A program made the translations under genes and the position numbers. 64,000 nucleotides of DNA from an uncultured Candidatus Saccharibacteria bacterium (GTDB lineage: Bacteria > Patescibacteriota > Minisyncoccia > Phycocordibacterales > UBA9973): NCBI GenBank assembly GCA_964631935.1, contig CAZWAV010000001.1, positions 4,979-68,978 on the forward strand. Reading direction: 5' to 3'. Positions 8,936 to 39,469 of the stretch are shown in pieces. Under the pieces are notes generated by a model that saw only the letters and a list, made by a program, of their open reading frames with translations, was not told the DNA's origin and ran no database searches. Numbering within the stretch: position 1 is the first letter of the stretch; each line of letters begins with the position of its first letter.

Positions 8936-8965
8936 TTGACAAGATACATATATCTATGCTATAAT
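8936..8965 (+). promoter_or_regulatory. Consensus sigma70 promoter (TTGACA-18-TATAAT), -10 ending 6 nt before the ATG (leaderless transcript predicted)
   Basis: TTGACA at 8936-8941 and TATAAT at 8960-8965. ATG at 8972. No SD. Confidence 0.6.
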
Positions 8966-8971
8966 ACTCGC

Positions 8972-9472
8972 ATGAATATGAAAACAACAAAAAACTTAAT
9001 AATCTTATCAGCCTTTGTTTTTGGGCTCTTAGGTGCTAATAATGCGCTTGCTTATGTTCCAGGTGTCTGGGATCCAGCGCCACGTGTATATAACAATGAA
9101 CCAGCTTTCTATAAAGTGCCTGTTACTTACGATGCACCAGTAGTTCCTCAGACTACAACAACTTCTACGACTTCTACTACAACAACACCAAAGAAGACAG
9201 TAGCTACGAATACTTCTACAACTAAAAGTACTACTACAACAACAAATGTTAACGATGCTCGTGAGTTGAAACCAATTGTTACAGAAGATGCTTACAACAA
9301 TAATAATAATGGTCTAACAGCACTTTCACTTGCAGGCTCTGGTGGCTTTATGCCAAGTTCAGTATGGCAGTGGTTGATGGTGATATTGTTAATACTAGTG
9401 ATTATTATAATCGCTCGCATGCTAGGAAAGTCTCACTCTCATCATGAAGTTCACACTGTAACAGCACACTAA
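8972..9472 (+). CDS. Small Thr-rich surface protein with C-terminal sorting-signal-like tail (LAGSG motif, TM, basic tail)
   Basis: Signal peptide, a T/S-rich stalk, then ...SLAGSGG followed by a hydrophobic helix and ARMLGKSHSHH. The ORF-track start at 8936 lies inside the promoter, so the start is reassigned to ATG 8972. Confidence 0.5.
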   Translation: MNMKTTKNLIILSAFVFGLLGANNALAYVPGVWDPAPRVYNNEPAFYKVPVTYDAPVVPQTTTTSTTSTTTTPKKTVATNTSTTKSTTTTTNVNDARELKPIVTEDAYNNNNNGLTALSLAGSGGFMPSSVWQWLMVILLILVIIIIARMLGKSHSHHEVHTVTAH

Positions 9473-9487
9473 TTTTAGTATAAAATA

Positions 9488-9516
9488 TAAAAAGCACCCT
9501 ATCGGGTGCTTTTTAT
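9488..9516 (+). terminator. Rho-independent terminator
   Basis: AGCACCC-TATC-GGGTGCT hairpin followed by a T-run. Confidence 0.8.
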
Positions 9517-9600
9517 TATCCCCATAAAATCAAGAGATATATATATACATTAAATAACCAATATTGTATAATTATGTTATTAATACTAAAAAATAAAATC

Positions 9601-12600
9601 ATGAAAATGAAAAAACTTCATCAGCATCTTTCGGATAATTTGTCCTGGTACAAGCATTGGCATGAGACAGGTTTTCATAAAATTATACATTACGGTATAT
9701 TAGGGTTCGCCATCTTGTTTACCGTCGGAACCATTCTGTCTGCTACTACTGCAAGCGCCGTTGGAACCATATACTATGTATCGGCCTCTGGTTCAGACTC
9801 AAATAATGGTACTTCTATTTCTACCCCATGGCAAACAATCGCAAAGGTAAATGCCACCACATTTGTCGCTGGTGATAAAATACTCTTTAATTCTGGTGAT
9901 ACATTTACTGGGACTATCATTCCCTCTGCATCAGGGACATCCACTAATCCTATTACATATGGTGCGTATGGAAGTGGGGCAAAGCCGGTGATTACGGGGT
10001 TTGTAAATGTTTCAGGTTGGACAAGTTTAGGAGGGAATAAATGGGAGAGTGCGGCTCTTTCATCTGCATTTCCAGATATAAATATTTTGTCAGTTAATGG
10101 TGGTAATTATGCAAAAGGCCGAACTCCTGATACTGGATATTGGCCATCAACGAGTGCTACATATACCAAGAGTTCTAATGTTGGTACCATCACCGATACT
10201 GCTAATTTAAATGCAAGTTCAATCAATTGGAAAGATGCACAGGTGGTATTTCGAAGTCAGCGATGGGTTCTCGACAAAGCAACAATTACTGCTGCAAGTA
10301 CTAATAAGATAACTTTTAATGGTGAACCATCAACCACTCCTGGTTGGGGATATTTTATTCAGAATGACCCAAGGACACTCAATCTTGTTAATGAATGGAG
10401 TTATAATCCGACATCAAAACAAATAACTATCTATAGTACTTCGACACCAACGAACGTGAAAGCTCCAGCTATTGATGTGGCAGTAAATCTTAATAGTAAA
10501 GATTATATAACATTTGACGGTATTGATTTTACTGGATTTAATTCAACTGGTATTAATACAACTTCCAAAACTGGGATTACTGTAACAAACTCCGCTTTTA
10601 ATTTTATCGGCATTGATGCTATTTATGCATATCCAAATTCTATTAATTTAAAAGTTACTAATAATACTTTTAATGAGATAAATAGCAGAGGTATTCATGG
10701 TGGCTCTTCTGATAATGCTTTTATTTCGAATAACACCTTAAACAAAATTGGAAATCTTGCTGGGATGGGAAGTAATGGTGATGACAGCTATACTGGTATT
10801 ATATCTATGGGTGATAATGGTATTGTGTCTTTTAATTCAATTACCAATGCTGGTTATGTCGGTATTCGTTGGGATGGAAAAAGTAGTCAGATATTAAAAA
10901 ACTTTGTTGATACTACCAATTATATAAAAGATGATGGAGGAGGTATCTATTCATACCCACAACAAGATGGTACTGCGTACACAACAAGGTATCACGGTTT
11001 TCAGAGAACTGTCGCGAACAACATTGTTATGAATTCAATTGGTGCTGTTGCTGGTGGTGAACCTTCTAGTTCATACAGTCAAGGTGAAGGAATTTATGCT
11101 GATGGATTGAGTCCAAATATTAATTTTACAAATAATACTATTTACAAAGCAAAACTCGGGTTATTTATTAATGGGGGCCATGAAATAACCGCTTCTGGAA
11201 ATACTGTTTATGATACAGAGAGAGGAATAAACTTCATGGCAATCCCTGATAAAAATGGAGTGCAACAGCGTGCCCACGACGTAAGCTTACAAAGCAACAT
11301 TCTTGTAGCCAGAGAATCTTCTTTATATACAGAGTATCCAATATATCTTGAGTTAAAGGCTCCAACTCTCGCAACATGGATGGATGGATTCCTCGCAAAT
11401 AATAATGTGTATGCACGTGTCAGACCAGCCAATGATCCAAAGCTAATATGGCTTGATGTGAGTGGTCCTGCCGATGTATTTAAGTCACTTTCAGAATGGA
11501 GGTTATTTTCAAGTCAAGACTCAAATGCAACTGAATCTCCAGTGGCGTTAACAACATCAACCAATTTACGCTTTGAATATAATGCGTCATCAGCTCCTAA
11601 AGTCGTCTCCCTTACTGAAAAATATGTCGATATGAAAAACGTCGACCAGACTTGCACACTCACTATCCCAGCATGGAGCTCTGTGGTGATGATTAAAACA
11701 GGAACGACTTGTACTTCTAATGGTGACCCAACCCCTCCCTCAACCTCCCTCACATCCCCAACAACAGGTACAACAGTCCTCGGTACCACACAACAAGTAG
11801 CAGCTAATGCTACAGATAATGTAGGTGTCACTAAAGTAGAGTTCTACATAGATGGTACAACTACATTACTAAACTGTACTCCAAACCCAGACACTACATC
11901 ACCATATCTATGTATCTGGAACACTACAACAGTCTCAAACGGTACTCACACAATTACATCTAAAGCCTATGATGCTGCTGGTAACTCAGCTATATCATCT
12001 GTTGTTAGTGTGAATGTGCAGAATGTAGTAACTGATACTACTGCTCCAGTCTTTACACCAACAGGAGCTCTATCGTCACCATCAGCAAACCTTTCAGTTC
12101 CTGTGGGAACATCATACGACATCACTGCTCACGCAACAGACAATGTAGGAATGGCAAAAGTTGAATTCTATAAAGATGGAGTTCTCATCAATACTCAAAC
12201 ATCAGGTCCTAACTCGGACTTCACTTACTCATGGAATACAATAGGTCTAACTGTAGGTTCTACTCACTCATGGACAGCAAAAGCGTACGATACAGCAAGT
12301 CCTGCTAATGTATCAACTACTACAGCTAGAGTGATTACTATTGGAGCTGGAGCAGATACTACACCTCCAACAGCATCTATTACCAATGCAGGAGGATACT
12401 ACAAAGGCGGTACCCGCATGACTCTCAAAGCTACATCCTCAGATAATGTCGGAGTTACGAAAACTGAATTTTATGTAAATGATGTTAAAAAATGCACAGA
12501 CACAACATCACCATATACATGCTCATGGTCTATGCCGTCATCAACAACTGTCACTTCATATGTAATCAAAGCTAAAGCATATGATGCAGCAGGGAATGTT

Positions 12601-13218
12601 GGAACCTCAGCAGATGTGAAGATGACAAATAGGAAGATAGCAGAATTATCTGTGTTAGCTGATGCGGGACCTAATCAAACAATCACACTACCAACTAATT
12701 CAGTAACTCTAACTGGTAGTTATTCAACAAACACGTTAACTACAACAACTACCTGGTCTAAAGTCTCAGGATCAGGTACTATCACTTCTCCTACATCTAC
12801 TACAACTACTGTTACAGGTCTTACTGCTGGAACATCTGTATTTCAGTTTACTGTTGATAATGGAGCTGGTTTTACTACCAGTGCTACTGTGACGGTGGTA
12901 GTGAATGTAGCGGTAAATACAGTTGTGTTCTCTTTTTCTGCTCCACAAGATCCTACAAAACTAGGACCACTTCCAAATGAAAATAGTGGTACCGTGACAA
13001 CAATACAGGTTAATGCGAGCGGTACAAATCCAATAACAAAAGTTGATTTCTATGTAGATGGTAATTTAGTAGGGACAGACAATACTTCAAATCCATTCGG
13101 AACTGTCTGGGATACCACTACTGTGTCTAATGGAGCCCACTTATTTACAGCTAAAGCTACTGATAACTTAGGTAATACGGGCACATCTGCTGCTATAAGT
13201 GTCACTATTAGTAACTAA
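9601..13218 (+). CDS. Large cell-surface protein: N-terminal membrane anchor, right-handed beta-helix (pectate-lyase-like) region, four or more Ig-like (Big) domains
   Basis: N-terminal TM segment. NxxGxxxG-type parallel beta-helix repeats span 10,500-11,200. Repeated ...VTKVEFYIDGT / VAKVEFYKDGV / VTKTEFYVNDV / ITKVDFYVDGN Ig-like modules follow. An extended -10 (TGTATAAT) lies at 9565-9572. Start placed at ATG 9601. Confidence 0.6.
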   Translation: MKMKKLHQHLSDNLSWYKHWHETGFHKIIHYGILGFAILFTVGTILSATTASAVGTIYYVSASGSDSNNGTSISTPWQTIAKVNATTFVAGDKILFNSGDTFTGTIIPSASGTSTNPITYGAYGSGAKPVITGFVNVSGWTSLGGNKWESAALSSAFPDINILSVNGGNYAKGRTPDTGYWPSTSATYTKSSNVGTITDTANLNASSINWKDAQVVFRSQRWVLDKATITAASTNKITFNGEPSTTPGWGYFIQNDPRTLNLVNEWSYNPTSKQITIYSTSTPTNVKAPAIDVAVNLNSKDYITFDGIDFTGFNSTGINTTSKTGITVTNSAFNFIGIDAIYAYPNSINLKVTNNTFNEINSRGIHGGSSDNAFISNNTLNKIGNLAGMGSNGDDSYTGIISMGDNGIVSFNSITNAGYVGIRWDGKSSQILKNFVDTTNYIKDDGGGIYSYPQQDGTAYTTRYHGFQRTVANNIVMNSIGAVAGGEPSSSYSQGEGIYADGLSPNINFTNNTIYKAKLGLFINGGHEITASGNTVYDTERGINFMAIPDKNGVQQRAHDVSLQSNILVARESSLYTEYPIYLELKAPTLATWMDGFLANNNVYARVRPANDPKLIWLDVSGPADVFKSLSEWRLFSSQDSNATESPVALTTSTNLRFEYNASSAPKVVSLTEKYVDMKNVDQTCTLTIPAWSSVVMIKTGTTCTSNGDPTPPSTSLTSPTTGTTVLGTTQQVAANATDNVGVTKVEFYIDGTTTLLNCTPNPDTTSPYLCIWNTTTVSNGTHTITSKAYDAAGNSAISSVVSVNVQNVVTDTTAPVFTPTGALSSPSANLSVPVGTSYDITAHATDNVGMAKVEFYKDGVLINTQTSGPNSDFTYSWNTIGLTVGSTHSWTAKAYDTASPANVSTTTARVITIGAGADTTPPTASITNAGGYYKGGTRMTLKATSSDNVGVTKTEFYVNDVKKCTDTTSPYTCSWSMPSSTTVTSYVIKAKAYDAAGNVGTSADVKMTNRKIAELSVLADAGPNQTITLPTNSVTLTGSYSTNTLTTTTTWSKVSGSGTITSPTSTTTTVTGLTAGTSVFQFTVDNGAGFTTSATVTVVVNVAVNTVVFSFSAPQDPTKLGPLPNENSGTVTTIQVNASGTNPITKVDFYVDGNLVGTDNTSNPFGTVWDTTTVSNGAHLFTAKATDNLGNTGTSAAISVTISN

Positions 13219-24608: not shown

Positions 24609-25199
24609 TTATTTGGTCTCTATAACTTTACCTGGTAAATAGGATATATCTTTAAATGGTAACAGCCGGAAATACGCACGGCCAACCATAAGCTTTCGAG
24701 GGAGCATCCCCCATATGCGTGAGTCTGAACTTCGATTTCGATTATCTCCCATTACGAAATATTCTTCATTGCCCGTTGTATAATCACCAGTGGTACTAAA
24801 TTGTTCATCTATGTAATCTTCTTTTAAGGTGAAACCTTCCGGATGTGCTTGATTTGTGATTGTAACTATGCCGGTCTTAATACTAACTTTTTCATTTGGT
24901 AATCCAATGATGCGCTTAATAAAAAATCTTGATGGATCATTTGGATATCGGAATATAACTACATCTCCACGATGAGGACCGTTTACGATGTAAGAAATTT
25001 CATCAACTATAAGGTACTGACCGTCGTCGAAAGTAGGGAACATTGATTCTCCACTAACAACGAATGGCTGAGCTATGAACATGCGGATGGGTACGACGAT
25101 AGCAAGGGCGATAACAGCAAACTTTAATAGATCCCAAGCACTCTCTGCGTGCTTCTGGATCTTGGCTCTCATGGGTGAAACTGGCTTGTTGTTTTCCAT
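24609..25199 (-). CDS. lepB: Signal peptidase I
   Basis: GESMFPTF (Ser box) and GDNRNRSSDSRIWG. Confidence 0.85.
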   Translation of the reverse strand: MENNKPVSPMRAKIQKHAESAWDLLKFAVIALAIVVPIRMFIAQPFVVSGESMFPTFDDGQYLIVDEISYIVNGPHRGDVVIFRYPNDPSRFFIKRIIGLPNEKVSIKTGIVTITNQAHPEGFTLKEDYIDEQFSTTGDYTTGNEEYFVMGDNRNRSSDSRIWGMLPRKLMVGRAYFRLLPFKDISYLPGKVIETK

Positions 25200-27448: not shown

Positions 27449-29092
27449 ATGAAAAAGGTAATCTACCTATCTCTGCTCTCACTGATTACAGTCAGGGTAA
27501 GTTCTCAAATACCAGTCAAAATTTGGACATTTTCTAATGTTTCAGGAACTGCTACAAGAGTACTCACTCGTTTACCGAGCAATCTAAACAAAGCGGTGGT
27601 TGCTGATCAAGCAGCCGGGTTAATCGAATTGGTTGATGTAACAACATCGACAGTTACAAAAACACCAATCGTTGGTCTTAATGCAACTACAGATTTTGCA
27701 TTAGGGACTCACAAGTCTCCAAATGCTACAGCTGACACGCTTGTTGGCTCATTTGCTTCTGGTGGTTCGAATTACATTTTTGCCCCGATAAATATCGCTG
27801 GTACAAGTGCAAGTATAGACACCAGATGGAGTATTTCTGGAAACAATGGGCGAGCTTATCATTCGATTTTACTTTTACCTTCTGGTAATAGGCAAGTCTA
27901 TTTCGATAAGAATCCTGCTTTTGCAAGTAGTCCGTTTGACTGCTATGTTAATGGAATTCAGATAACGGGCCATTTTGCAGAATTAACCCCTTCGGGTGGG
28001 GTGATTCAAACACAGTGTGAACCGAGTATTTTGGTTCCACCGGTGGTCCCGCCTATTCCAATGGTTAACGAACCGTTTTATCTGTTGTCCGGTGATATAT
28101 TTTACCCCGGATCATTTACAACAGTAAATGGAGTAGCTTCAGGTAAGGCATTCAAGCTTAGCGCTGATGGTACAGTTGTTACCCCCTTAAGCCTAAGTAA
28201 TTCTAATCAAGCCAATGTCTACACAGCAGGTGGCAGGATTGGGACTAATGGAGTTACTTATATTGCCTATAGTTCAGGAGTGCTGGGAACCCCATTGATA
28301 ACTTTTGATGAAAATACCAACACATTCGGATCTGTGGGAGCGCCACTTGTGTATCAAAATCCACAAAGTGCTCCATTTGAAAAGAATGGAAAAATGTACG
28401 TGACCGGTTCAACACCTATTTCAGCTTCAACAGGAAGCACAATATTGGCTCTAGACATGGTGACTTCTACTTGGGAGGATAATGATAATGGGCTATGGAT
28501 TAACGGTTATGCTGCAAACCAGACTGTGACCCAGATATTTTTTGGTGTTACAGGAGATTGTGGATTTATTTTCGGTAATATGGGTCAAAATACTGGTACT
28601 CTCGCGAGCAATGTATCATTTCAAGCTGCAATGTGCCCGCCAGTTGTTCTTGCTTTCGGTATGGAATTAAAGTTTGTACGTAAAAATGATTTCGAAATCA
28701 CATTACATTTTACAAATGTGGATCAGAGTACAGTTTTACAGAAAAGTACTAACGGAGTTAATTTCATAGACTTACCAAATGCTTTAGGGGTAAACAGTGA
28801 AGGTAATGTAAAAGTAGGGAATATCACAACAGGAGATTCTTATTTCAGATTAAGATCAGTCAACACTTACTCAAATATTGTAAGGGTTGCATCATCAAAA
28901 GATAACATCACTGTTATGGGTTTGAATGTTTATTTCCCCAATGGTAATACATTGGAAGTTTACAACACGTTGGGTCAAAAAGTTGCTATATACAAAAACG
29001 GCAACGCGATCCTAACACAAAAGGGTATTTTAATTTTAGCTTCTATTTCACCTAACGGGGAAAGAGAAATTAAGAAAGTATTTATCCAATAA
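27449..29092 (+). CDS. Secreted protein with T9SS-type C-terminal sorting domain look-alike
   Basis: Signal peptide. The last ~75 aa (...LNVYFPNGNTLEVYNTLGQKVAIYKNGNAILTQKGILILASISPNGEREIKKVFIQ) resemble the Por_Secre_tail/TIGR04183 pattern. Confidence 0.5.
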   Translation: MKKVIYLSLLSLITVRVSSQIPVKIWTFSNVSGTATRVLTRLPSNLNKAVVADQAAGLIELVDVTTSTVTKTPIVGLNATTDFALGTHKSPNATADTLVGSFASGGSNYIFAPINIAGTSASIDTRWSISGNNGRAYHSILLLPSGNRQVYFDKNPAFASSPFDCYVNGIQITGHFAELTPSGGVIQTQCEPSILVPPVVPPIPMVNEPFYLLSGDIFYPGSFTTVNGVASGKAFKLSADGTVVTPLSLSNSNQANVYTAGGRIGTNGVTYIAYSSGVLGTPLITFDENTNTFGSVGAPLVYQNPQSAPFEKNGKMYVTGSTPISASTGSTILALDMVTSTWEDNDNGLWINGYAANQTVTQIFFGVTGDCGFIFGNMGQNTGTLASNVSFQAAMCPPVVLAFGMELKFVRKNDFEITLHFTNVDQSTVLQKSTNGVNFIDLPNALGVNSEGNVKVGNITTGDSYFRLRSVNTYSNIVRVASSKDNITVMGLNVYFPNGNTLEVYNTLGQKVAIYKNGNAILTQKGILILASISPNGEREIKKVFIQ

Positions 29093-29114
29093 AAATTTAA
29101 AGTTTAAAATAATA

Positions 29115-29148
29115 CCAGCTTCCTTGAAAAAGGGAGCTGTTTTTTTAT
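29115..29148 (+). terminator. Rho-independent terminator
   Basis: CAGCTTCC...GGGAGCTG followed by T7. Confidence 0.75.
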
Positions 29149-29271
29149 TTATAATCTGACAAAAATAACCCCTTGACTTTCTCTTATAAATTTGGTACAG
29201 TATGCACCTCATAGTAATGATATTGATTTATCACGGCTTTAATTATTAACAAGTTAAGTATTTACAAACAA

Positions 29272-30390
29272 ATGACAAAAAAGATTTTTTCATACGTTTT
29301 AGTTTTTGCTTTTGCATTTTTTATAAGTGCACAGACAATTCCTAAAATAGTTCGCGCAAGCCTTGCATTACCACAATGCCAAGACGGTTTAGATAACGAT
29401 TCTGATGGAGTTATAGATAACTTAGACCCACAGTGTCACACAGATGGCGATGCTTCTAATGCATTTTCATATGACGCAAATATCGACAATGAAGCTGCGC
29501 CTCCAGGTGGTGGTCTTGCATTACCACAATGCCAAGATGGTTTAGATAACGATTCTGATGGAGTTATAGATAACTTAGATCCACAGTGTCACACAGATGG
29601 CGATGCTTCTAATGCATTTTCATATGACGCAAATATCGACAATGAAGCTTCACCAGTAATAATAACTAGCGGAGGTGGAGGAGGAGGTGGACATCATCTA
29701 TGTTCTGATACATTAGATAATGACAGTGATGGAGTTGTCGATTCAGCTGATCCAGGATGTCATAGTGATGGCGATCCTACTAACACTGCTTCATATAACC
29801 CATTCGATGATAGTGAATTAAACACAAATACTGTAACTACAGCTCCAGTGCCACAAGTTCTGGGTGCTACTACTGGTCCAGTAGAATGTGGTGGTCTTAC
29901 AGGCCGACCATGTTCATTACAGAAGACAGGTGGTACAGAAGTATCTCAAAGAACTCTATTAAACAGAAAGGCAAATGCTATTGCAATGAGTGAACACAAT
30001 GAACTAATTATTCCAAAGCTAGGAATAGACAAAAATGTTCTCTACTATCAATCAACTGACTCTCTATTTAAGGAAGCAATGCTCCTACCTTGGACATCTA
30101 CGCCAGATAAAGGTGGTAACACTGTTCTTGTCGGACATGCTTACTACCTTAGAAATAATATTTACTCTAAGTCTACATTTTATGAACTAGATAAAATGTC
30201 TGCTGGCGACGAAATTACGATGTACTGGAAAGGAGTAAAATACACATACATAGTAAAAGAAATGAAGAAAGTGACTCCAGACCAAATAGATATTGAAAGT
30301 CCTACAACAACACCGACTCTCACTATTTATTCTTGTGGACGATTCACGAATCTTACAAGAACAGTAGTTGTAGCTACTCTTAAGGCCTAA
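29272..30390 (+). CDS. Secreted sortase-domain protein with N-terminal Cys/Asp-rich Ca-binding-like repeats
   Basis: Signal peptide. Three repeats of QCxDGxDNDSDGVxDxxDPxCH. The C-terminal domain carries NTVLVGHAYY...GDEITMYWKGVKYTYIV...TLTIYSCGRF...R, matching the sortase His, TLxTC-like Cys and Arg. Confidence 0.6.
   Translation: MTKKIFSYVLVFAFAFFISAQTIPKIVRASLALPQCQDGLDNDSDGVIDNLDPQCHTDGDASNAFSYDANIDNEAAPPGGGLALPQCQDGLDNDSDGVIDNLDPQCHTDGDASNAFSYDANIDNEASPVIITSGGGGGGGHHLCSDTLDNDSDGVVDSADPGCHSDGDPTNTASYNPFDDSELNTNTVTTAPVPQVLGATTGPVECGGLTGRPCSLQKTGGTEVSQRTLLNRKANAIAMSEHNELIIPKLGIDKNVLYYQSTDSLFKEAMLLPWTSTPDKGGNTVLVGHAYYLRNNIYSKSTFYELDKMSAGDEITMYWKGVKYTYIVKEMKKVTPDQIDIESPTTTPTLTIYSCGRFTNLTRTVVVATLKA
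29362..29650 (+). repeat. Near-identical in-frame tandem duplication (2 x 136 bp, period 153 bp, 3 mismatches) inside the sortase-domain gene
   Basis: Unit 1 at 29362-29497 and unit 2 at 29515-29650 were compared base by base. Confidence 0.9.
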
Positions 30391-30403: not shown

Positions 30404-30427
30404 AAAACCCCTCATTTGAGGGGTTTT
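30404..30427 (+). terminator. Rho-independent terminator
   Basis: AAAACCCCTCA-TT-TGAGGGGTTTT. Confidence 0.8.
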
Positions 30428-35795: not shown

Positions 35796-36266
35796 ATGAA
35801 AAAAAATATATCAATATCTATAATACTCCTCACAATACTGTTTGCCCCGTTTATTGGTACAAAGTTAGCCTACGTAGAAGCAAAGCCTATTGTTCCTGAT
35901 TGTGGAACCCTCTCTACTCCTACTGATAGTAGTGGTAATCCAAAAAAAGATTCTGCAGGTAACATAATCACACAAAAAGTCATAACTAATCCTTGTGATT
36001 TCGATGATTTAATGGATTTGATAAACAACCTCATTAACTTCTTGCTATTCGTTATTGCTACACCCCTCGTGGCAATCATACTTTGCTATGTAGGATTTAA
36101 ATTGCTTACTTCAGGGGGTAATTCAGAAGGTATGACTAAAGCCAAAACTATACTAAAGAATGTTATTTTTGGTTATATAATAGCTCTTATTGCATGGCTG
36201 CTTATAAAGACCATACTTACAACTGTAGGTATTGATCCAAAGGATGCTTTCCTTATTGAATTCTAA
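35796..36266 (+). CDS. VirB2/TrbC-like pilin paralog 1
   Basis: Signal peptide, a short variable domain with 2 Cys, then hydrophobic helix - charged loop (SGGNSEGMTKAK) - hydrophobic helix. Confidence 0.5.
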   Translation: MKKNISISIILLTILFAPFIGTKLAYVEAKPIVPDCGTLSTPTDSSGNPKKDSAGNIITQKVITNPCDFDDLMDLINNLINFLLFVIATPLVAIILCYVGFKLLTSGGNSEGMTKAKTILKNVIFGYIIALIAWLLIKTILTTVGIDPKDAFLIEF

Positions 36267-36297
36267 TTATCAACTAAATGTTATATAATAATCTCAT

Positions 36298-36819
36298 ATG
36301 AATATTTTCAGAGTAAAAGGTAAAAAATTAGTCTTAGAAATTACAAAATATCTTTTTGTCTTCTTGGTAGCTTTTGTTTTAATTAGACCAGTTTTTGCTG
36401 ATCCTTGTACGGGTCAAGACAATACTGGAACTCCTACTCCTTATGGTTGTACTTCTACAATTGATAATACCCAACAGAATAGTTCTACAATTGACAACAC
36501 AAAACCCAATACAGATACTGGTATAAAAATTAATTCAGGAATAAAAAACCCACTTGGTAATGGCTTTGGTTCTGACATTCCAACTTTCCTAGAATCAGTT
36601 TTAAATTTCTTTCTCCTAATAGGTATACCTATTATTACTTTGGCGATAATATACTGTGGTTTCCTTTTTGTTACAGCACAAGGCAATTCTGAGAAATTGA
36701 AAAAGGCCAAGCAAGCATTACTCTACACTATAGTTGGCGCAGCTCTATTACTTGGCTCTCTGGTTATAACTCGTGCCATTCAAGGTACAGTCGATGAAAT
36801 TAAAACTAACAATAAATAA
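36298..36819 (+). CDS. VirB2/TrbC-like pilin paralog 2
   Basis: Same TM-loop-TM C-terminal module (…CGFLFVTAQGNSEKLKKAKQALLYTIVGAALLLG…). Confidence 0.5.
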   Translation: MNIFRVKGKKLVLEITKYLFVFLVAFVLIRPVFADPCTGQDNTGTPTPYGCTSTIDNTQQNSSTIDNTKPNTDTGIKINSGIKNPLGNGFGSDIPTFLESVLNFFLLIGIPIITLAIIYCGFLFVTAQGNSEKLKKAKQALLYTIVGAALLLGSLVITRAIQGTVDEIKTNNK

Positions 36820-36822
36820 TTT

Positions 36823-37125
36823 ATGGATATTTGTAAAACAGCAGAGACAAAATTAGATAGCATTGGGCATATATTTAACTGGGCAAGTTGTACGCTTATT
36901 AAGTTTGTTGTGCCTCTACTTTTTTCTCTTGCGACAGTAGGGTTTATCTGGGGTATCATTCAATATTTCTTAAACCCCGATAATGAAGAAAAGCGTAAAA
37001 AAGGGAAGAGTTATATGATTTGGGGATTGATTGCTCTGTTTGTGATGGTGAGTATGTGGGGACTGGTTGGAGTACTGACGAAGACCTTCGGCATCCAGAC
37101 ACTTATTCCCCAGCTTTCACAGTAG
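36823..37125 (+). CDS. VirB2/TrbC-like pilin paralog 3
   Basis: …FIWGIIQYFLNPDNEEKRKKGKSYMIWGLIALFVMVSMWG…. Confidence 0.5.
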   Translation: MDICKTAETKLDSIGHIFNWASCTLIKFVVPLLFSLATVGFIWGIIQYFLNPDNEEKRKKGKSYMIWGLIALFVMVSMWGLVGVLTKTFGIQTLIPQLSQ

Positions 37126-37253
37126 GGTATTGTAATTTGTTAGTTCTTTTATGATATAATAGAGGGGTAAATAAGTAGATAGTACATTACCTGCGGTCGC
37201 AAGGTAATGACAAATTATTATAAGAGTTTTTTATTAATTAATTTAGTTAACTT

Positions 37254-37610
37254 ATGAAGAAAATTATTGCATTCGGTTTAGCGTTCGGCGTAACTCCATT
37301 CTTGGCTCTTGCCGCAGATGCGTTCAGTATTATTACAAAGATAAATCAAATACTTTCTCTCGTTATTCCAGTTTTGATTACTCTTGCTGTTGTTTACTTT
37401 ATCTGGGGTATTATCCAATACACTCTTTCTACAGATGAAGAAAAGAAAAAGAAAGCTCGTGGGATGATCATCAATGGTCTTATCGGTCTATTTATAATCG
37501 TTGCTTTCTGGGGTATCATCAGACTTGTTACAAATACATTTGGTGTTGGTCCTGAACAACTAAACTCAAACGCTATACCTTGTATCCCTGGCCCTGGTGT
37601 TCCTTGCTAG
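37254..37610 (+). CDS. VirB2/TrbC-like pilin paralog 4
   Basis: …FIWGIIQYTLSTDEEKKKKARGMIINGLIGLFIIVAFWG…. Confidence 0.5.
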   Translation: MKKIIAFGLAFGVTPFLALAADAFSIITKINQILSLVIPVLITLAVVYFIWGIIQYTLSTDEEKKKKARGMIINGLIGLFIIVAFWGIIRLVTNTFGVGPEQLNSNAIPCIPGPGVPC

Positions 37611-37633
37611 TACTAGTCTACAACTAATAATAT

Positions 37634-39469
37634 ATGAGTTTTAATATTGTCCCAGTCGCAGAGGCAGATGTCCTTACGCTCGTTAAGAGTATTGATAAGG
37701 TTATTATTAACCCCATCATAATCTTCTTATTCGCTGTCGCGATGGTCTACTTCCTCTACGGCGTGGCACAATATCTATTAGCCTCAGATAATGAAGAAGT
37801 CCGAAGCAAAAGCAAATCTCACATGATGTGGGGTGTAATCGGGCTTTTTATTATGGTTGCCGTATTCGGCATCATGAGGATACTCCTAAATACATTCGGA
37901 GAAACTAAAATCCAAGTTAATAGTAACGGCGACTTTAATGTCACAGGTACAACTCTAAACGATACCCCTGTTGCCAATAATCCTGGTACGGGTGGAGATT
38001 TGTTTAAGCCTGGTTCGGTAGATGTGAGTACAAATACTGACTCTCCTGCTCTAGGATCTAATCAGTACATAACAAGTCCATTCCCAATGTATGAAGCACA
38101 TGCTACAACTTGTTGGAGTAACATATCTTATAGCAAAGCAGGAACTGAATTTAATGCTCTTGAATTAGTCAAAGCTAATGCCAAAACTAGATACTTGTCT
38201 GCTAGTGGTATGACAAGCTTGCAAGCTGATAAGTTGGGCTATCCAAAAGCTTTTGAGACAAAAGTTCTATACGATAAAACAGGGAAGATATATTATGCCT
38301 GGCTTGATTCTAGAGCACCTATAGGTACTGGGACCATGACTGATTGTAATTTGAAAGTTCTAGCTCCAGCCCCTACACTCCCCGCATCTATAGTATTCTC
38401 TCAGTCTGATGTTAGTAGTGCAACTGATACAGCAAACCTACCTCAAGATGTATATACAAGTAGTCCATTCCCAACTTTCGAAGCAAAGCCTGCGGTGTGT
38501 TGGAATAATGGCAACAGTCCATTCCTAGCTAAAGGTAGTACTGAGTTCAATGCTCTAGAATTGGTTAAAGCAAATGCACGTAAGAAATATTTGTCGGATA
38601 ATAATATTTCCGTTACAGATAGTACAAAAGCAAATTACCCTGTGATTTTTGAATCAAAAGTTCTCTATGATAAAAAGGCCAAGATTTATTACGCATGGCT
38701 TGATTCTCGCGCACCTATAGGAACAGGGAAGATGACTGACTGTAATTTGAAAGTAGTTACACCTGCTCGTGCGGTACCTGATTCAATAGTTTTTTCCCAA
38801 GTTGATGCAACAGGAGGAGTGTTAAACCTTAGTGGTTCAACTACAGACAATAATATTGCGGATTACACAAAGAGCCCATTCAAGCAGAAATATATTCCCA
38901 ATAATCTTTGCTGGCGTGAGCAAATATACAATAAAGCAAATACTGAATTTGAAGCATCAAGCCAGGTAAAGTTTAACGCACGTTTAGATTATCTTAGTGC
39001 TAGTCATTTGACTGAGAGTACAGCCCCACAGAACTTGCCTACAGTTTATGGATCATTTACTGCCTATGACAAGGTAAACAAAGTCTACTATGTATGGCTC
39101 GATGTCCGAGCTCCTATAGGAGCAGGTAGTAAGGCATCTGACTGTAACTTGGCCCCTGATGGTGCGCCTATCACTCTACAAGAGCCTACAGCTCGAAGTG
39201 CCAAGCCAAACCCTCTATCTGCAAAAGCACAAACGTCAAAAGATTCGAATGACTCATATTATAGAGTTATTGATTCGGGGGCTGACAACAACTATTTCGT
39301 CGCTCGCAATATTGCTATAAATAATGCTCTTATTCAAATAGCTAAACTAAAAGGTCTAGATAGTATTACTGATATAACATCAAAGACTATAGTAGAAGAG
39401 AAGTACTATCCTCAAGATCCTTATACTCTCAACTTTGACTATTGGGTAGCTATAGAATCTCCTAAATAG
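37634..39469 (+). CDS. VirB2/TrbC-like pilin paralog 5 with long C-terminal extension of three ~110-aa Cys-pair repeats
   Basis: N-terminal pilin module (…FLYGVAQYLLASDNEEVRSKSKSHMMWGVIGLFIMVAVFG…). Followed by 3 divergent repeats, each with SPFP..E...CW......TEF.A.ELVKANA..YLS....YD...KIYYAWLDSRAPIGTG.MTDCNLKV. Confidence 0.5.
   Translation: MSFNIVPVAEADVLTLVKSIDKVIINPIIIFLFAVAMVYFLYGVAQYLLASDNEEVRSKSKSHMMWGVIGLFIMVAVFGIMRILLNTFGETKIQVNSNGDFNVTGTTLNDTPVANNPGTGGDLFKPGSVDVSTNTDSPALGSNQYITSPFPMYEAHATTCWSNISYSKAGTEFNALELVKANAKTRYLSASGMTSLQADKLGYPKAFETKVLYDKTGKIYYAWLDSRAPIGTGTMTDCNLKVLAPAPTLPASIVFSQSDVSSATDTANLPQDVYTSSPFPTFEAKPAVCWNNGNSPFLAKGSTEFNALELVKANARKKYLSDNNISVTDSTKANYPVIFESKVLYDKKAKIYYAWLDSRAPIGTGKMTDCNLKVVTPARAVPDSIVFSQVDATGGVLNLSGSTTDNNIADYTKSPFKQKYIPNNLCWREQIYNKANTEFEASSQVKFNARLDYLSASHLTESTAPQNLPTVYGSFTAYDKVNKVYYVWLDVRAPIGAGSKASDCNLAPDGAPITLQEPTARSAKPNPLSAKAQTSKDSNDSYYRVIDSGADNNYFVARNIAINNALIQIAKLKGLDSITDITSKTIVEEKYYPQDPYTLNFDYWVAIESPK

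Follow-up and report, generated by a model that had tools for sequence, protein, structure and literature searches.

We have analysed a 64-kb stretch of DNA (64,000 nucleotides of contig CAZWAV010000001.1, hereafter the window) from a bacterium of the Paceibacteria, a group within the Patescibacteria or Candidate Phyla Radiation (CPR), and describe here a protein of 372 amino acids (aa) that combines a predicted signal peptide, a stalk of acidic repeats, a motif resembling an LPXTG sorting signal and a sortase domain in a single chain. In the current understanding, sortases are anchored in the membrane and work in trans, on LPXTG proteins other than themselves. The protein in question, which we call the repeat-stalk sortase, carries the motif LQKTGG ahead of its own catalytic domain, and we tentatively propose that it may be a natural substrate-sortase fusion that processes this motif itself. 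To judge from the sequence comparisons below, we hold this reading to be quite possible, if short of probable. The elements of the gene, all on the forward strand of the window, are as follows.

29272..30390 (+), stop codon included: whole gene of the repeat-stalk sortase, 372 aa, from the list of open reading frames (ORFs)
29272..29358 (+): N-terminal Sec signal peptide, aa 1-29, predicted from the -3/-1 rule to be cut between VRA and S
29362..29649 (+): in-frame tandem duplication, period 153 bp, 1.9 copies (Tandem Repeats Finder)
29377..29493 (+): acidic Cys-bracketed repeat 1, aa 36-74 (C36...C55), matching NF033662 and the teneurin-4 C-rich calcium-binding motif
29530..29646 (+): acidic repeat 2, aa 87-125, a recent copy of repeat 1 with identical protein sequence (NF033662 match)
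29701..29817 (+): acidic repeat 3, aa 144-182, old and kept in most orthologues (NF033662 match; orthologue alignment)
29857..29913 (+): conserved linker with VLGA (aa 196-199) and the Cys206-Cys214 loop CGGLTGRPC (orthologue alignment)
29917..29934 (+): LQKTGG, an LPXTG-type sorting-signal-like motif, aa 216-221, 31 residues ahead of beta-strand 1
29941..29994 (+): aa 224-241, predicted to form an amphipathic helix that leads on to the barrel (DSSP, AlphaFold2 model)
30001..30387 (+): sortase catalytic domain, aa 244-372 (PF04203, PDB sequence matches, Foldseek)
30136-30138, 30334-30336 and 30358-30360 (+): catalytic residues His289, Cys355 and Arg363, respectively (coordinates checked)

In public collections the exact 372-aa protein is found on a single 360-kb contig, where the Joint Genome Institute (JGI) name is that of a sortase-family protein. 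A species-level genome scan found relatives at two loci only, both in metagenome-assembled genomes of Candidatus Paceibacteria/Paceibacterota, which is too few for a broad survey. The GyrA encoded nearby in the window falls into a cluster at 90% identity to which NCBI gives the name 'Patescibacteria group bacterium'. The same architecture is found in 18 further sequence clusters with 44-62% identity to the window protein, and the family, which comprises at least 19 clusters, is conserved. An earlier note on this DNA, made from the sequence alone, had called the architecture unusual. This holds as far as rarity goes; yet the family is a conserved one, and CPR sortases with large extracellular N-terminal parts recur.

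A sortase domain with an intact-looking catalytic triad

The earlier note had read a sortase triad in canonical order in the C-terminal part of the protein, and this identification stands because the triad aligns with that of solved sortases and the structural model matches sortase structures. Pfam PF04203 matches aa 246-370 with 74.7 bits against a cut-off of 26.6 (E 7.1e-21), covering positions 2-124 of the 125 in the profile. His289 lies in LVGH, Cys355 in TLTIYSCGRF and Arg363 eight residues downstream of the cysteine, and in a sequence alignment all three fall on the catalytic residues of the solved SrtA 5dv0_A; a PDB sequence search with the window protein returned sortases alone at significant E-values. 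The AlphaFold2 model, built on the orthologue alignment, has a predicted local distance difference test (pLDDT) score of ~80-96 over aa 241-372. Foldseek found 139 PDB matches to it at E <=1e-3, the 50 best of which were all sortases, with class C, D and A enzymes at the top (E ~1e-10; core root-mean-square deviation 2.5-2.8 A over ~135 columns). The three catalytic residues are invariant in 19 of 19 orthologues, and among 150 representatives of the wider clade the His and Cys are again invariant, while the Arg is kept in at least 90%. Judged by its sequence and its model, the protein has the eight-stranded beta-barrel fold of sortases and is a catalytically intact-looking sortase-family cysteine transpeptidase.

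We rejected an assignment to any named sortase class and have filed the enzyme in none, because all NCBIfam class models scored far below their cut-offs (SrtD exception, 38.3 bits vs 140; class D, 35.3 vs 165; class C, 34.7 vs 160; class E, 29.6 vs 160; class F, 19.9 vs 166). The general sortase model TIGR01076 was below its cut-off as well (30.8 bits vs 39.35). The chain ends at the last strand of the domain, with no C-terminal transmembrane (TM) segment.

An invariant LPXTG-like motif ahead of the sortase domain

The segment leading up to the motif follows the pattern P-x-VLGA-TT...C-G-x-x-T-G-R-P-C-x-LQKTGG. Across the 19 orthologues V196, L197, G198 and P213 of the linker are invariant, and so are L216, Q217, T219 and G220 of the motif itself, which reads LQ[KR]TG in all of them and stands 30-31 residues before strand 1. 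The Cys loop is absent from two of the 19, and LQ[KR]TG is still kept there. LQKTG has the form of LPXTG with Gln replacing Pro, and in the AlphaFold2 model the region around it (aa 211-220) has a pLDDT of ~81. The N-terminal half of the window protein shares with proteins bearing a classical wall sorting signal the order of signal peptide, stalk and L-x-x-T-G, and differs from them in the Gln at the second motif position and in what comes next: no hydrophobic segment and basic tail follow LQKTGG, and a hydrophilic helix and the sortase domain stand in their place. Five residues of this helix (R227, N231, A234, A238 and E241) are invariant, and all lie on one face.

The first part of the linker is also met outside this family. 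The sequence (Q/E)VLG(A/T), present in the window protein at 29857-29868 before the Cys loop, recurs in linkers of CPR surface proteins; it stands directly before a PG_binding_1 domain in the repeat-bearing proteins P0024, P0031 and P0036, occurs twice in P0137, and is carried by P0149 as well.

A predicted signal peptide with a conserved cleavage pattern

The protein begins with an MKK n-region followed by an h-region of ~16 residues, and cleavage after Ala29 is predicted, with an alternative site after aa 20 (between ISA and Q). In the orthologue alignment, position -1 of the predicted site is Ala in 17 of 19 and Ser in the other two, while all 19 have V, A, T or I at position -3. The earlier note had described the protein as secreted by means of a signal peptide, and this conserved -3/-1 signal-peptidase pattern argues for that description, albeit on the basis of a rule. 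Ordinary short CPR sortases, by contrast, have a basic cytoplasmic tail and a TM anchor instead of a cleavable-looking signal peptide. Because the pattern is kept in all 19 orthologues, where the short enzymes have a tail and anchor, we infer that the repeat-stalk sortase is probably released from the membrane.

A stalk of acidic repeats, one of them recently duplicated

Between the predicted cleavage site and the linker lie three stretches matched by the NCBIfam model NF033662, the 'acidic double-disulfide repeat' (70.6 bits vs a cut-off of 41, E 6.3e-20). The repeats therefore belong to a curated, known family and are not new. In other bacteria, NF033662 repeats occur in sortase substrates and in peptidoglycan-binding proteins, not in sortases; many actinobacterial wall-anchored proteins carry the same acidic repeats directly N-terminal to an LPXTG signal. 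The earlier note had counted three copies of QCxDGLDNDSDGVIDNLDPQCH. Three units are indeed present, but the third reads CSDTLDNDSDGVVDSADPGCH and is not that string. It is ~59% identical to repeat 1 over the 39-aa core, and this, together with its retention in most orthologues, agrees with the note's description of it as old and divergent. Both repeat 1 (pLDDT ~83-88) and repeat 3 (~88-91) are confidently modelled by AlphaFold2.

A profile of 13 repeat units found a single solved relative, the C-rich domain of teneurin-4 (7plp_A, E 0.0099), to whose sequence CGDSKDNDGDGLVDCMDPDC the repeat consensus CsDgvDNDgDgviDsaDPgC aligned. In the 1.5 A structure of that domain, the equivalent Asp and Asn residues bind calcium as in thrombospondin type-3 repeats, and a disulfide links the first Cys to the one that follows 'DPx' (PMC9058538). 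The disulfide-bracketed ligand pattern D-x-x-D-N-D-x-D-x-x-x-D-x-x-D is kept in the window repeats as a correspondence at the level of sequence, and the likeness extends over the core C-x-D-x-x-D-N-D-x-D-G-x-x-D-x-x-D-P-x-C. There are also differences, namely two Cys per unit in the window protein vs six in the teneurin domain, and a second half of the unit, H-x-D-G-D-x-x-N-x-x-S-Y-D...E, that has no solved counterpart. The proposal that the repeats form calcium-binding-like loops bracketed by Cys is supported by the NF033662 match and the teneurin-4 correspondence.

At the DNA level, Tandem Repeats Finder reported one array only, at 29362-29649 (98% matches, 0 indels), and a base-by-base comparison of 29362-29497 with 29515-29650 gave three mismatches in 136 positions; the nearly perfect in-frame duplication of 153 bp that the earlier note described is therefore real at the level of the assembled sequence. 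Two of the mismatches, 29385 C/T and 29427 C/T, are synonymous third-position changes (Asp/Asp), while the third, 29497 G/T (Ala/Ser), sits at the edge of the unit, so that the duplicated block proper is 135 bp long with two synonymous differences. The block encodes 'LALPQC...DNEA', and an 18-bp junction encoding AAPPGG completes the period. Most orthologues have two repeats, and others have one, or one together with a PKD domain. The extra unit that brings the window protein to three is thus, on this comparison, a lineage-specific duplication of 51 aa, which fits the near-identity of the two DNA copies and bears out the note's suggestion of a very recent event. Stalk length appears to change fast through gain and loss of repeat units.

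Passenger-bearing sortases and natural fusions among distant relatives

Distant sortases were gathered by an exhaustive phmmer search, and several of them resemble the window protein in layout. P0139 (892 aa), P0144 (812), P0164 (814) and P0170 (1228) start with a signal peptide and a large passenger; a Pro/Thr-rich linker then leads to LQITG, LELTG or LEITG at 30-31 residues before strand 1, and no TM segment is present. P0199 and P0224 have canonical LPHTG and LPDTG at the same position before the sortase domain. In P0261, P0235, P0267 and P0162 the motif (LPNTG, LPETG, LAKTG or LPVTG) is followed by a TM segment, a basic segment, a second TM segment and a sortase domain. We considered stop-codon read-through as the origin of such fusions of a cell wall sorting signal, TM segment and sortase, and rejected it for P0261, the only fusion checked, whose ORF is continuous under genetic code 11. 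The gene for P0139 sits alone between rpsG and efp, with no candidate substrate gene alongside.

The motif is not spread evenly over these sortases. L..TG lies no more than 130 aa ahead of strand 1 in 15 of the 17 proteins whose N-terminal passenger is extracytoplasmic, and one more has LPNTSG; given a background of 0.001 L..TG per residue, the binomial p for 15/17 is ~6e-12. When the span was narrowed to 60 aa, L..TG was present in 12/22 proteins with a long N-terminus vs 1/128 short ones (Fisher p 4.5e-11), and the sole short protein turned out to be a truncated long form. These counts support a real association of L..TG with an N-terminal extracellular passenger.

Two further observations were made on the same set of proteins. 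A Cys-bracketed module, 'PGC(M/T)DPxALNY(D/N)...(N/D)GSC.Y', which none of the models run matched, occurs in up to ~7 copies in P0261 (L014:2392-4518) and in one copy before the Pro/Thr linker of the large LEITG/LQITG fusions (P0139, P0140, P0144, P0164 and P0170). P0138 (369 aa) has two tandem sortase domains, the first of which lacks the TLxTC cysteine context (…LTLFTSTAD…) and may be an inactive duplicate.

A possible self-processing surface protein

The N-terminal half of the repeat-stalk sortase appears to be laid out as a sortase substrate, with a cleavable signal peptide, a stalk that would span the wall zone and an LPXTG-type motif, and the sortase domain would take the place of the hydrophobic segment and basic tail. 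After export and removal of the signal peptide, the sortase domain would cut between LQKT and GG, either in its own chain or in that of a neighbouring copy, hold the stalk as a thioester on Cys355 and then pass it to an amine. A peptidoglycan precursor or cross-bridge could accept the stalk, as possibly could the product of the upstream gene, a secreted protein with a C-terminal domain of the type IX secretion system (T9SS) type that would act as functional partner. The protein would in that case be a self-contained, possibly single-turnover, anchoring device. Neither the LQKTGG motif nor the conserved partner gene figured in the earlier note, and both alter the mechanism that seems most likely.

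Several lines of evidence lead us to this proposal. LQ[KR]TG is kept in all 19 orthologues even though their identity to the window protein is only 44-62% and the neighbouring Cys loop is dispensable; L-[QE]-x-T-G recurs at the constant spacing of 30-31 aa in the distant TM-less sortases of 812-1228 aa; and complete fusions of a sorting signal to a sortase exist (P0261, P0235, P0267 and P0162). The stalk is built of the same acidic repeats that are typical of actinobacterial LPXTG substrates. No classical substrate is encoded in the 64-kb window, the P0139 gene has no neighbouring substrate gene, and the pairing of the partner gene with the sortase gene is kept in 9/9 loci. Lastly, L-Q/E-x-T-G is plausible as a signal because class E sortases accept LAXTG, in which the second position is not proline (PMC5148588).

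Other points weigh against self-processing. The h-region also meets a crude hydrophobicity test for a TM segment, and the passenger consists of three repeats only, so that the benefit from anchoring it is unclear. We know of no experimentally proven precedent for Gln or Glu at the second position of the motif. The partner protein lacks L..TG, which leaves its role unexplained. The motif itself, moreover, could equally be an uncleaved pseudo-substrate, and a tripeptide from the enzyme's own N-terminal linker is seen in the active site of SrtE1 (PMC5148588).

This last idea forms the core of the first alternative, which we consider somewhat unlikely, namely that the protein is a conventional trans-acting sortase in which LQKTGG serves as pseudo-substrate or lid. 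The motif and helix would then dock on the catalytic domain and gate its active site as the lid of class C sortases does, the repeats would do no more than tether the enzyme in the wall zone or hold it at a distance, and the true substrates would be encoded elsewhere in the genome. The SrtE1 precedent agrees with this, as do the fairly confident model of the motif region, the invariant helix face, which suggests a fixed packing, and the rank of class C sortases, which have N-terminal helices and lids, as best Foldseek matches; Gln or Glu in place of Pro could block cleavage. A lid of exactly the class C type was nevertheless rejected, since the helix (aa 224-241) runs straight into strand 1 (aa 244), which leaves no room for one, and DP[FWY] is absent. 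A lid made of a recognition motif with intact T-G would, in addition, be at constant risk of cleavage, and an unanchored trans-acting sortase would be unusual. The distribution of the motif also speaks against a lid, in that L..TG tracks the N-terminal extracellular passenger and the cleavable signal peptide rather than sortases at large, and relatives exist in which a true LPXTG and a complete sorting signal are fused to the sortase.

If the repeat-stalk sortase does process its own motif, the same could apply more widely: natural 'self-sorting' surface proteins may exist in Paceibacteria and related CPR bacteria, proteins in which a C-terminal sortase replaces the membrane-anchor part, cuts between T and G of L-[QE/P]-x-T-G and ligates its own passenger to the wall or to the conserved partner. 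We regard this generalization as doubtful at present.

A conserved gene directly upstream of the sortase

The gene preceding that of the sortase is of interest both as a possible partner and as the basis of a second alternative. The features of this region are listed here together with the hairpin that follows the sortase gene.

27449..29092 (+): conserved partner of 547 aa, secreted and all-beta, whose gene immediately precedes that of the sortase in 9/9 loci
29116..29139 (+): hairpin resembling a terminator, with 10 pairs and then a T-run, downstream of the partner gene
29173..29201 (+): promoter-like site, TTGACT-17-TACAGT with TG ahead, between the hairpin and the sortase gene; a consensus match only
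30404..30427 (+): hairpin AAAACCCCTC-ATTT-GAGGGGTTTT, 3' of the stop codon, read from the sequence; probable terminator of the sortase gene

In 9 of the 9 loci that have upstream DNA, the partner (~530-625 aa, typically ~550) is found directly upstream of the sortase, and this in at least four flanking contexts: S1...MBL-GyrA (MBL, metallo-beta-lactamase), PIF1 helicase...histidine kinase, RNase III...SMC, and others with a different left flank (L008) or with L10/L12 downstream (L010). Homologue searches for the partner, by profile and by single sequence, gave at least four proteins each, with candidate selection saturated. The structure model of the partner is all-beta and poor (mean pLDDT 53).

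Partner proteins combine an Fn3-like module with a C-terminal sorting domain of T9SS type A, which is recognised by profile in the orthologues. Those at L003 (4108-5859), L004 (1970-3643) and L008 (4248-5846) pass TIGR04183 with 37, 24.7 and 33 bits, respectively (cut-off 23), and PF18962 is recorded for the copies at L004, L008 and L009 (2969-4846). The window copy itself matches neither TIGR04183 nor PF18962 and gives only a hit to NF033708 far below the threshold (E 0.036, 13.9 bits vs 40); by sequence, its T9SS-type domain is degenerate. The signal peptide of the partner ends in ...FAQ or ...FGQ, which resembles the 'Q-rule' of Bacteroidota. No T9SS component was seen in the 64-kb window. 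To our knowledge, Patescibacteria are regarded as having no outer membrane and we would not expect a T9SS in the Paceibacteria lineage, and the T9SS-type domain may have been acquired horizontally or be put to some other use here.

A comparison of the window with the L007 locus gave identities of 92% for S1, 91% for GyrA and 81% for the MBL-fold protein, vs 57% for the sortase and 30% for the partner. Since the flanks are 81-92% identical and gene order is otherwise conserved, partner and sortase together (27449-30390) form a fast-evolving, hypervariable island. Between them lie the terminator-like hairpin and the promoter-like site, and the two genes appear to be separate transcription units, although promoter-like sites are no more numerous in the region than expected from shuffling. 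The hairpin after the sortase gene was not reported by the consensus scan for terminators and promoters.

This arrangement would also fit a dedicated accessory sortase, which processes or attaches the upstream protein and perhaps removes its T9SS-type C-terminal domain, LQKTGG being incidental. Such an action would be analogous to that of PorU in Bacteroidota, and accessory sortases are commonly encoded beside their substrates. The likeness to T9SS and PorU consists in the pairing of a cargo bearing a C-terminal domain, which in the partner orthologues passes T9SS type A models, with a transpeptidase; it stops at the window copy, which reaches no T9SS model cut-off, and PorU is not a sortase-fold enzyme. 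Adjacency of the gene pair in all nine loci and in at least four contexts counts in favour of this alternative, as does the divergence of both genes, which is far faster than that of their neighbours, as expected for an interacting surface pair. We find it distinctly unlikely all the same. The partner lacks both an L..TG or LPXT-like motif and a C-terminal TM segment with basic tail, the hairpin and promoter-like site split the two genes, motif-bearing distant relatives such as P0139 have no such neighbour, and the invariance of LQKTGG is left unexplained; nor do we know of T9SS C-terminal domains as sortase targets. The idea is compatible with self-processing if the partner is the acceptor.

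That the duplication is an assembly error or the protein a non-functional remnant is highly improbable: the exact protein does come from a single contig of a metagenome assembly, in which a 153-bp repeat is about as long as a short read, but an assembler-made duplicate is a poor explanation for copies that differ at two synonymous sites and have distinct junctions on either side, repeat number varies among orthologues (one, two, or one plus PKD), nothing interrupts the frame, and neither the catalytic residues nor the motif vary among the 19 orthologues.

Other genes in the window

The earlier note had suggested looking in the genome for proteins with LPxTG or LAxTG, a TM segment and a basic tail. 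No classical substrate of this kind (L[PAQ]xT[GAS] followed by a C-terminal TM segment and a basic tail) is encoded in any of the six frames of the 64-kb window, and searches of the window with home-made hidden Markov models gave no further sortase, repeat protein or protein with the T9SS-type C-terminal domain. The sole candidate with a C-terminal TM segment and a Gly/Ser-rich pre-segment, albeit without a recognisable motif, is the ORF at 8936-9472 (+), whose product is a 178-aa mucin-like protein ending in ...LSLAGSGGFMPSSVWQW-TM-GKSHSHH (a His/Lys tail). It is followed (joint span 8936-13218, +) by the gene for a 1214-aa protein with four Big_7, a PKD and beta-helix domains. Both might be surface proteins, the 178-aa one with an unconventional C-terminal anchor signal.

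At 35796-39469 (+), four tandem genes (156, 173, 100 and 118 aa) pass the Pfam model T4SS_pilin (PF18895), and they are followed by the gene for a 611-aa protein whose T4SS_pilin N-terminus is just sub-threshold (25.4 bits vs 26.6). At L001 and L006, which are syntenic, the array is kept. The gene for a signal peptidase I (24609-25199, -; Peptidase_S26, E 1e-42) lies ~4 kb from the sortase and in the same place in L001 and L006, a proximity that probably reflects just conserved gene order.

Relation to known systems

Among the named sortases, those of class E (Streptomyces coelicolor SrtE1/SrtE2; family C60) share their fold and His-Cys-Arg triad with the window protein, and NCBI annotates P0055, a short CPR sortase and the closest named relative of the clade, as class E. 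The window protein is not a member by NCBIfam, as its class E score shows, and differs in having no cytoplasmic tail or obvious TM anchor and in having a cleavable-looking signal peptide, a stalk and a motif of its own. The pilin-polymerising class C sortases are the best structural matches of the model (Foldseek E 4e-11 to 4g1j, 3rbi and 6ixz) and have in common with it an N-terminal helix before strand 1 and the idea of a self-segment near the active site. They differ in their DP[FWY] lid and C-terminal TM segment, both of which the window protein lacks, and the class C model scores far below its cut-off; the conserved segment of the window protein is a sorting-motif look-alike that lies N-terminal to the helix.

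The logic proposed here is similar to that of Hedgehog-type autoprocessing domains and of engineered sortase-fusion tools. In the latter, 'protein-LPXTG-linker-SrtA' (STEPL) constructs self-cleave and transfer the cargo to an added amine nucleophile. As in the window protein, cargo, LPXTG-type motif, short linker and sortase domain lie in one chain; those constructs are artificial, however, whereas the window arrangement is natural and conserved and its would-be motif is LQKTG. Related methods that use self-cleavage also exist (such as PMC2901362).

A literature search, which was incomplete and so amounts to absence of evidence only, turned up no paper on the NF033662-type repeat or on CPR sortases like this one, and none on fusions of substrate and sortase in nature or on Patescibacteria with T9SS domains. 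The domain families are known already. Their arrangement is, as far as can be told, undescribed: it brings together a lost anchor, an N-terminal half in the style of a substrate, a sorting-type motif within the chain and a conserved partner whose C-terminal domain is T9SS-like.

Should the motif prove to be no more than a lid, what remains is an accessory sortase, rare but of the usual kind, whose stalk of the calcium-binding type evolves fast. The partner is a separate puzzle, as it carries a Bacteroidota-style T9SS C-terminal domain in a lineage where no T9SS would be expected. If, on the other hand, the repeat-stalk sortase does process its own motif, it would be a natural counterpart of the widely used tools for ligation by sortase fusion, in which L-Q/E-x-T-G may be a new recognition motif, and would represent a new mode of surface display, in which a sortase has lost its anchor and gained a cleavable signal peptide, a sorting motif of its own and a stalk, in a group of bacteria, the CPR or Patescibacteria, whose envelope biology and attachment to hosts are poorly known.

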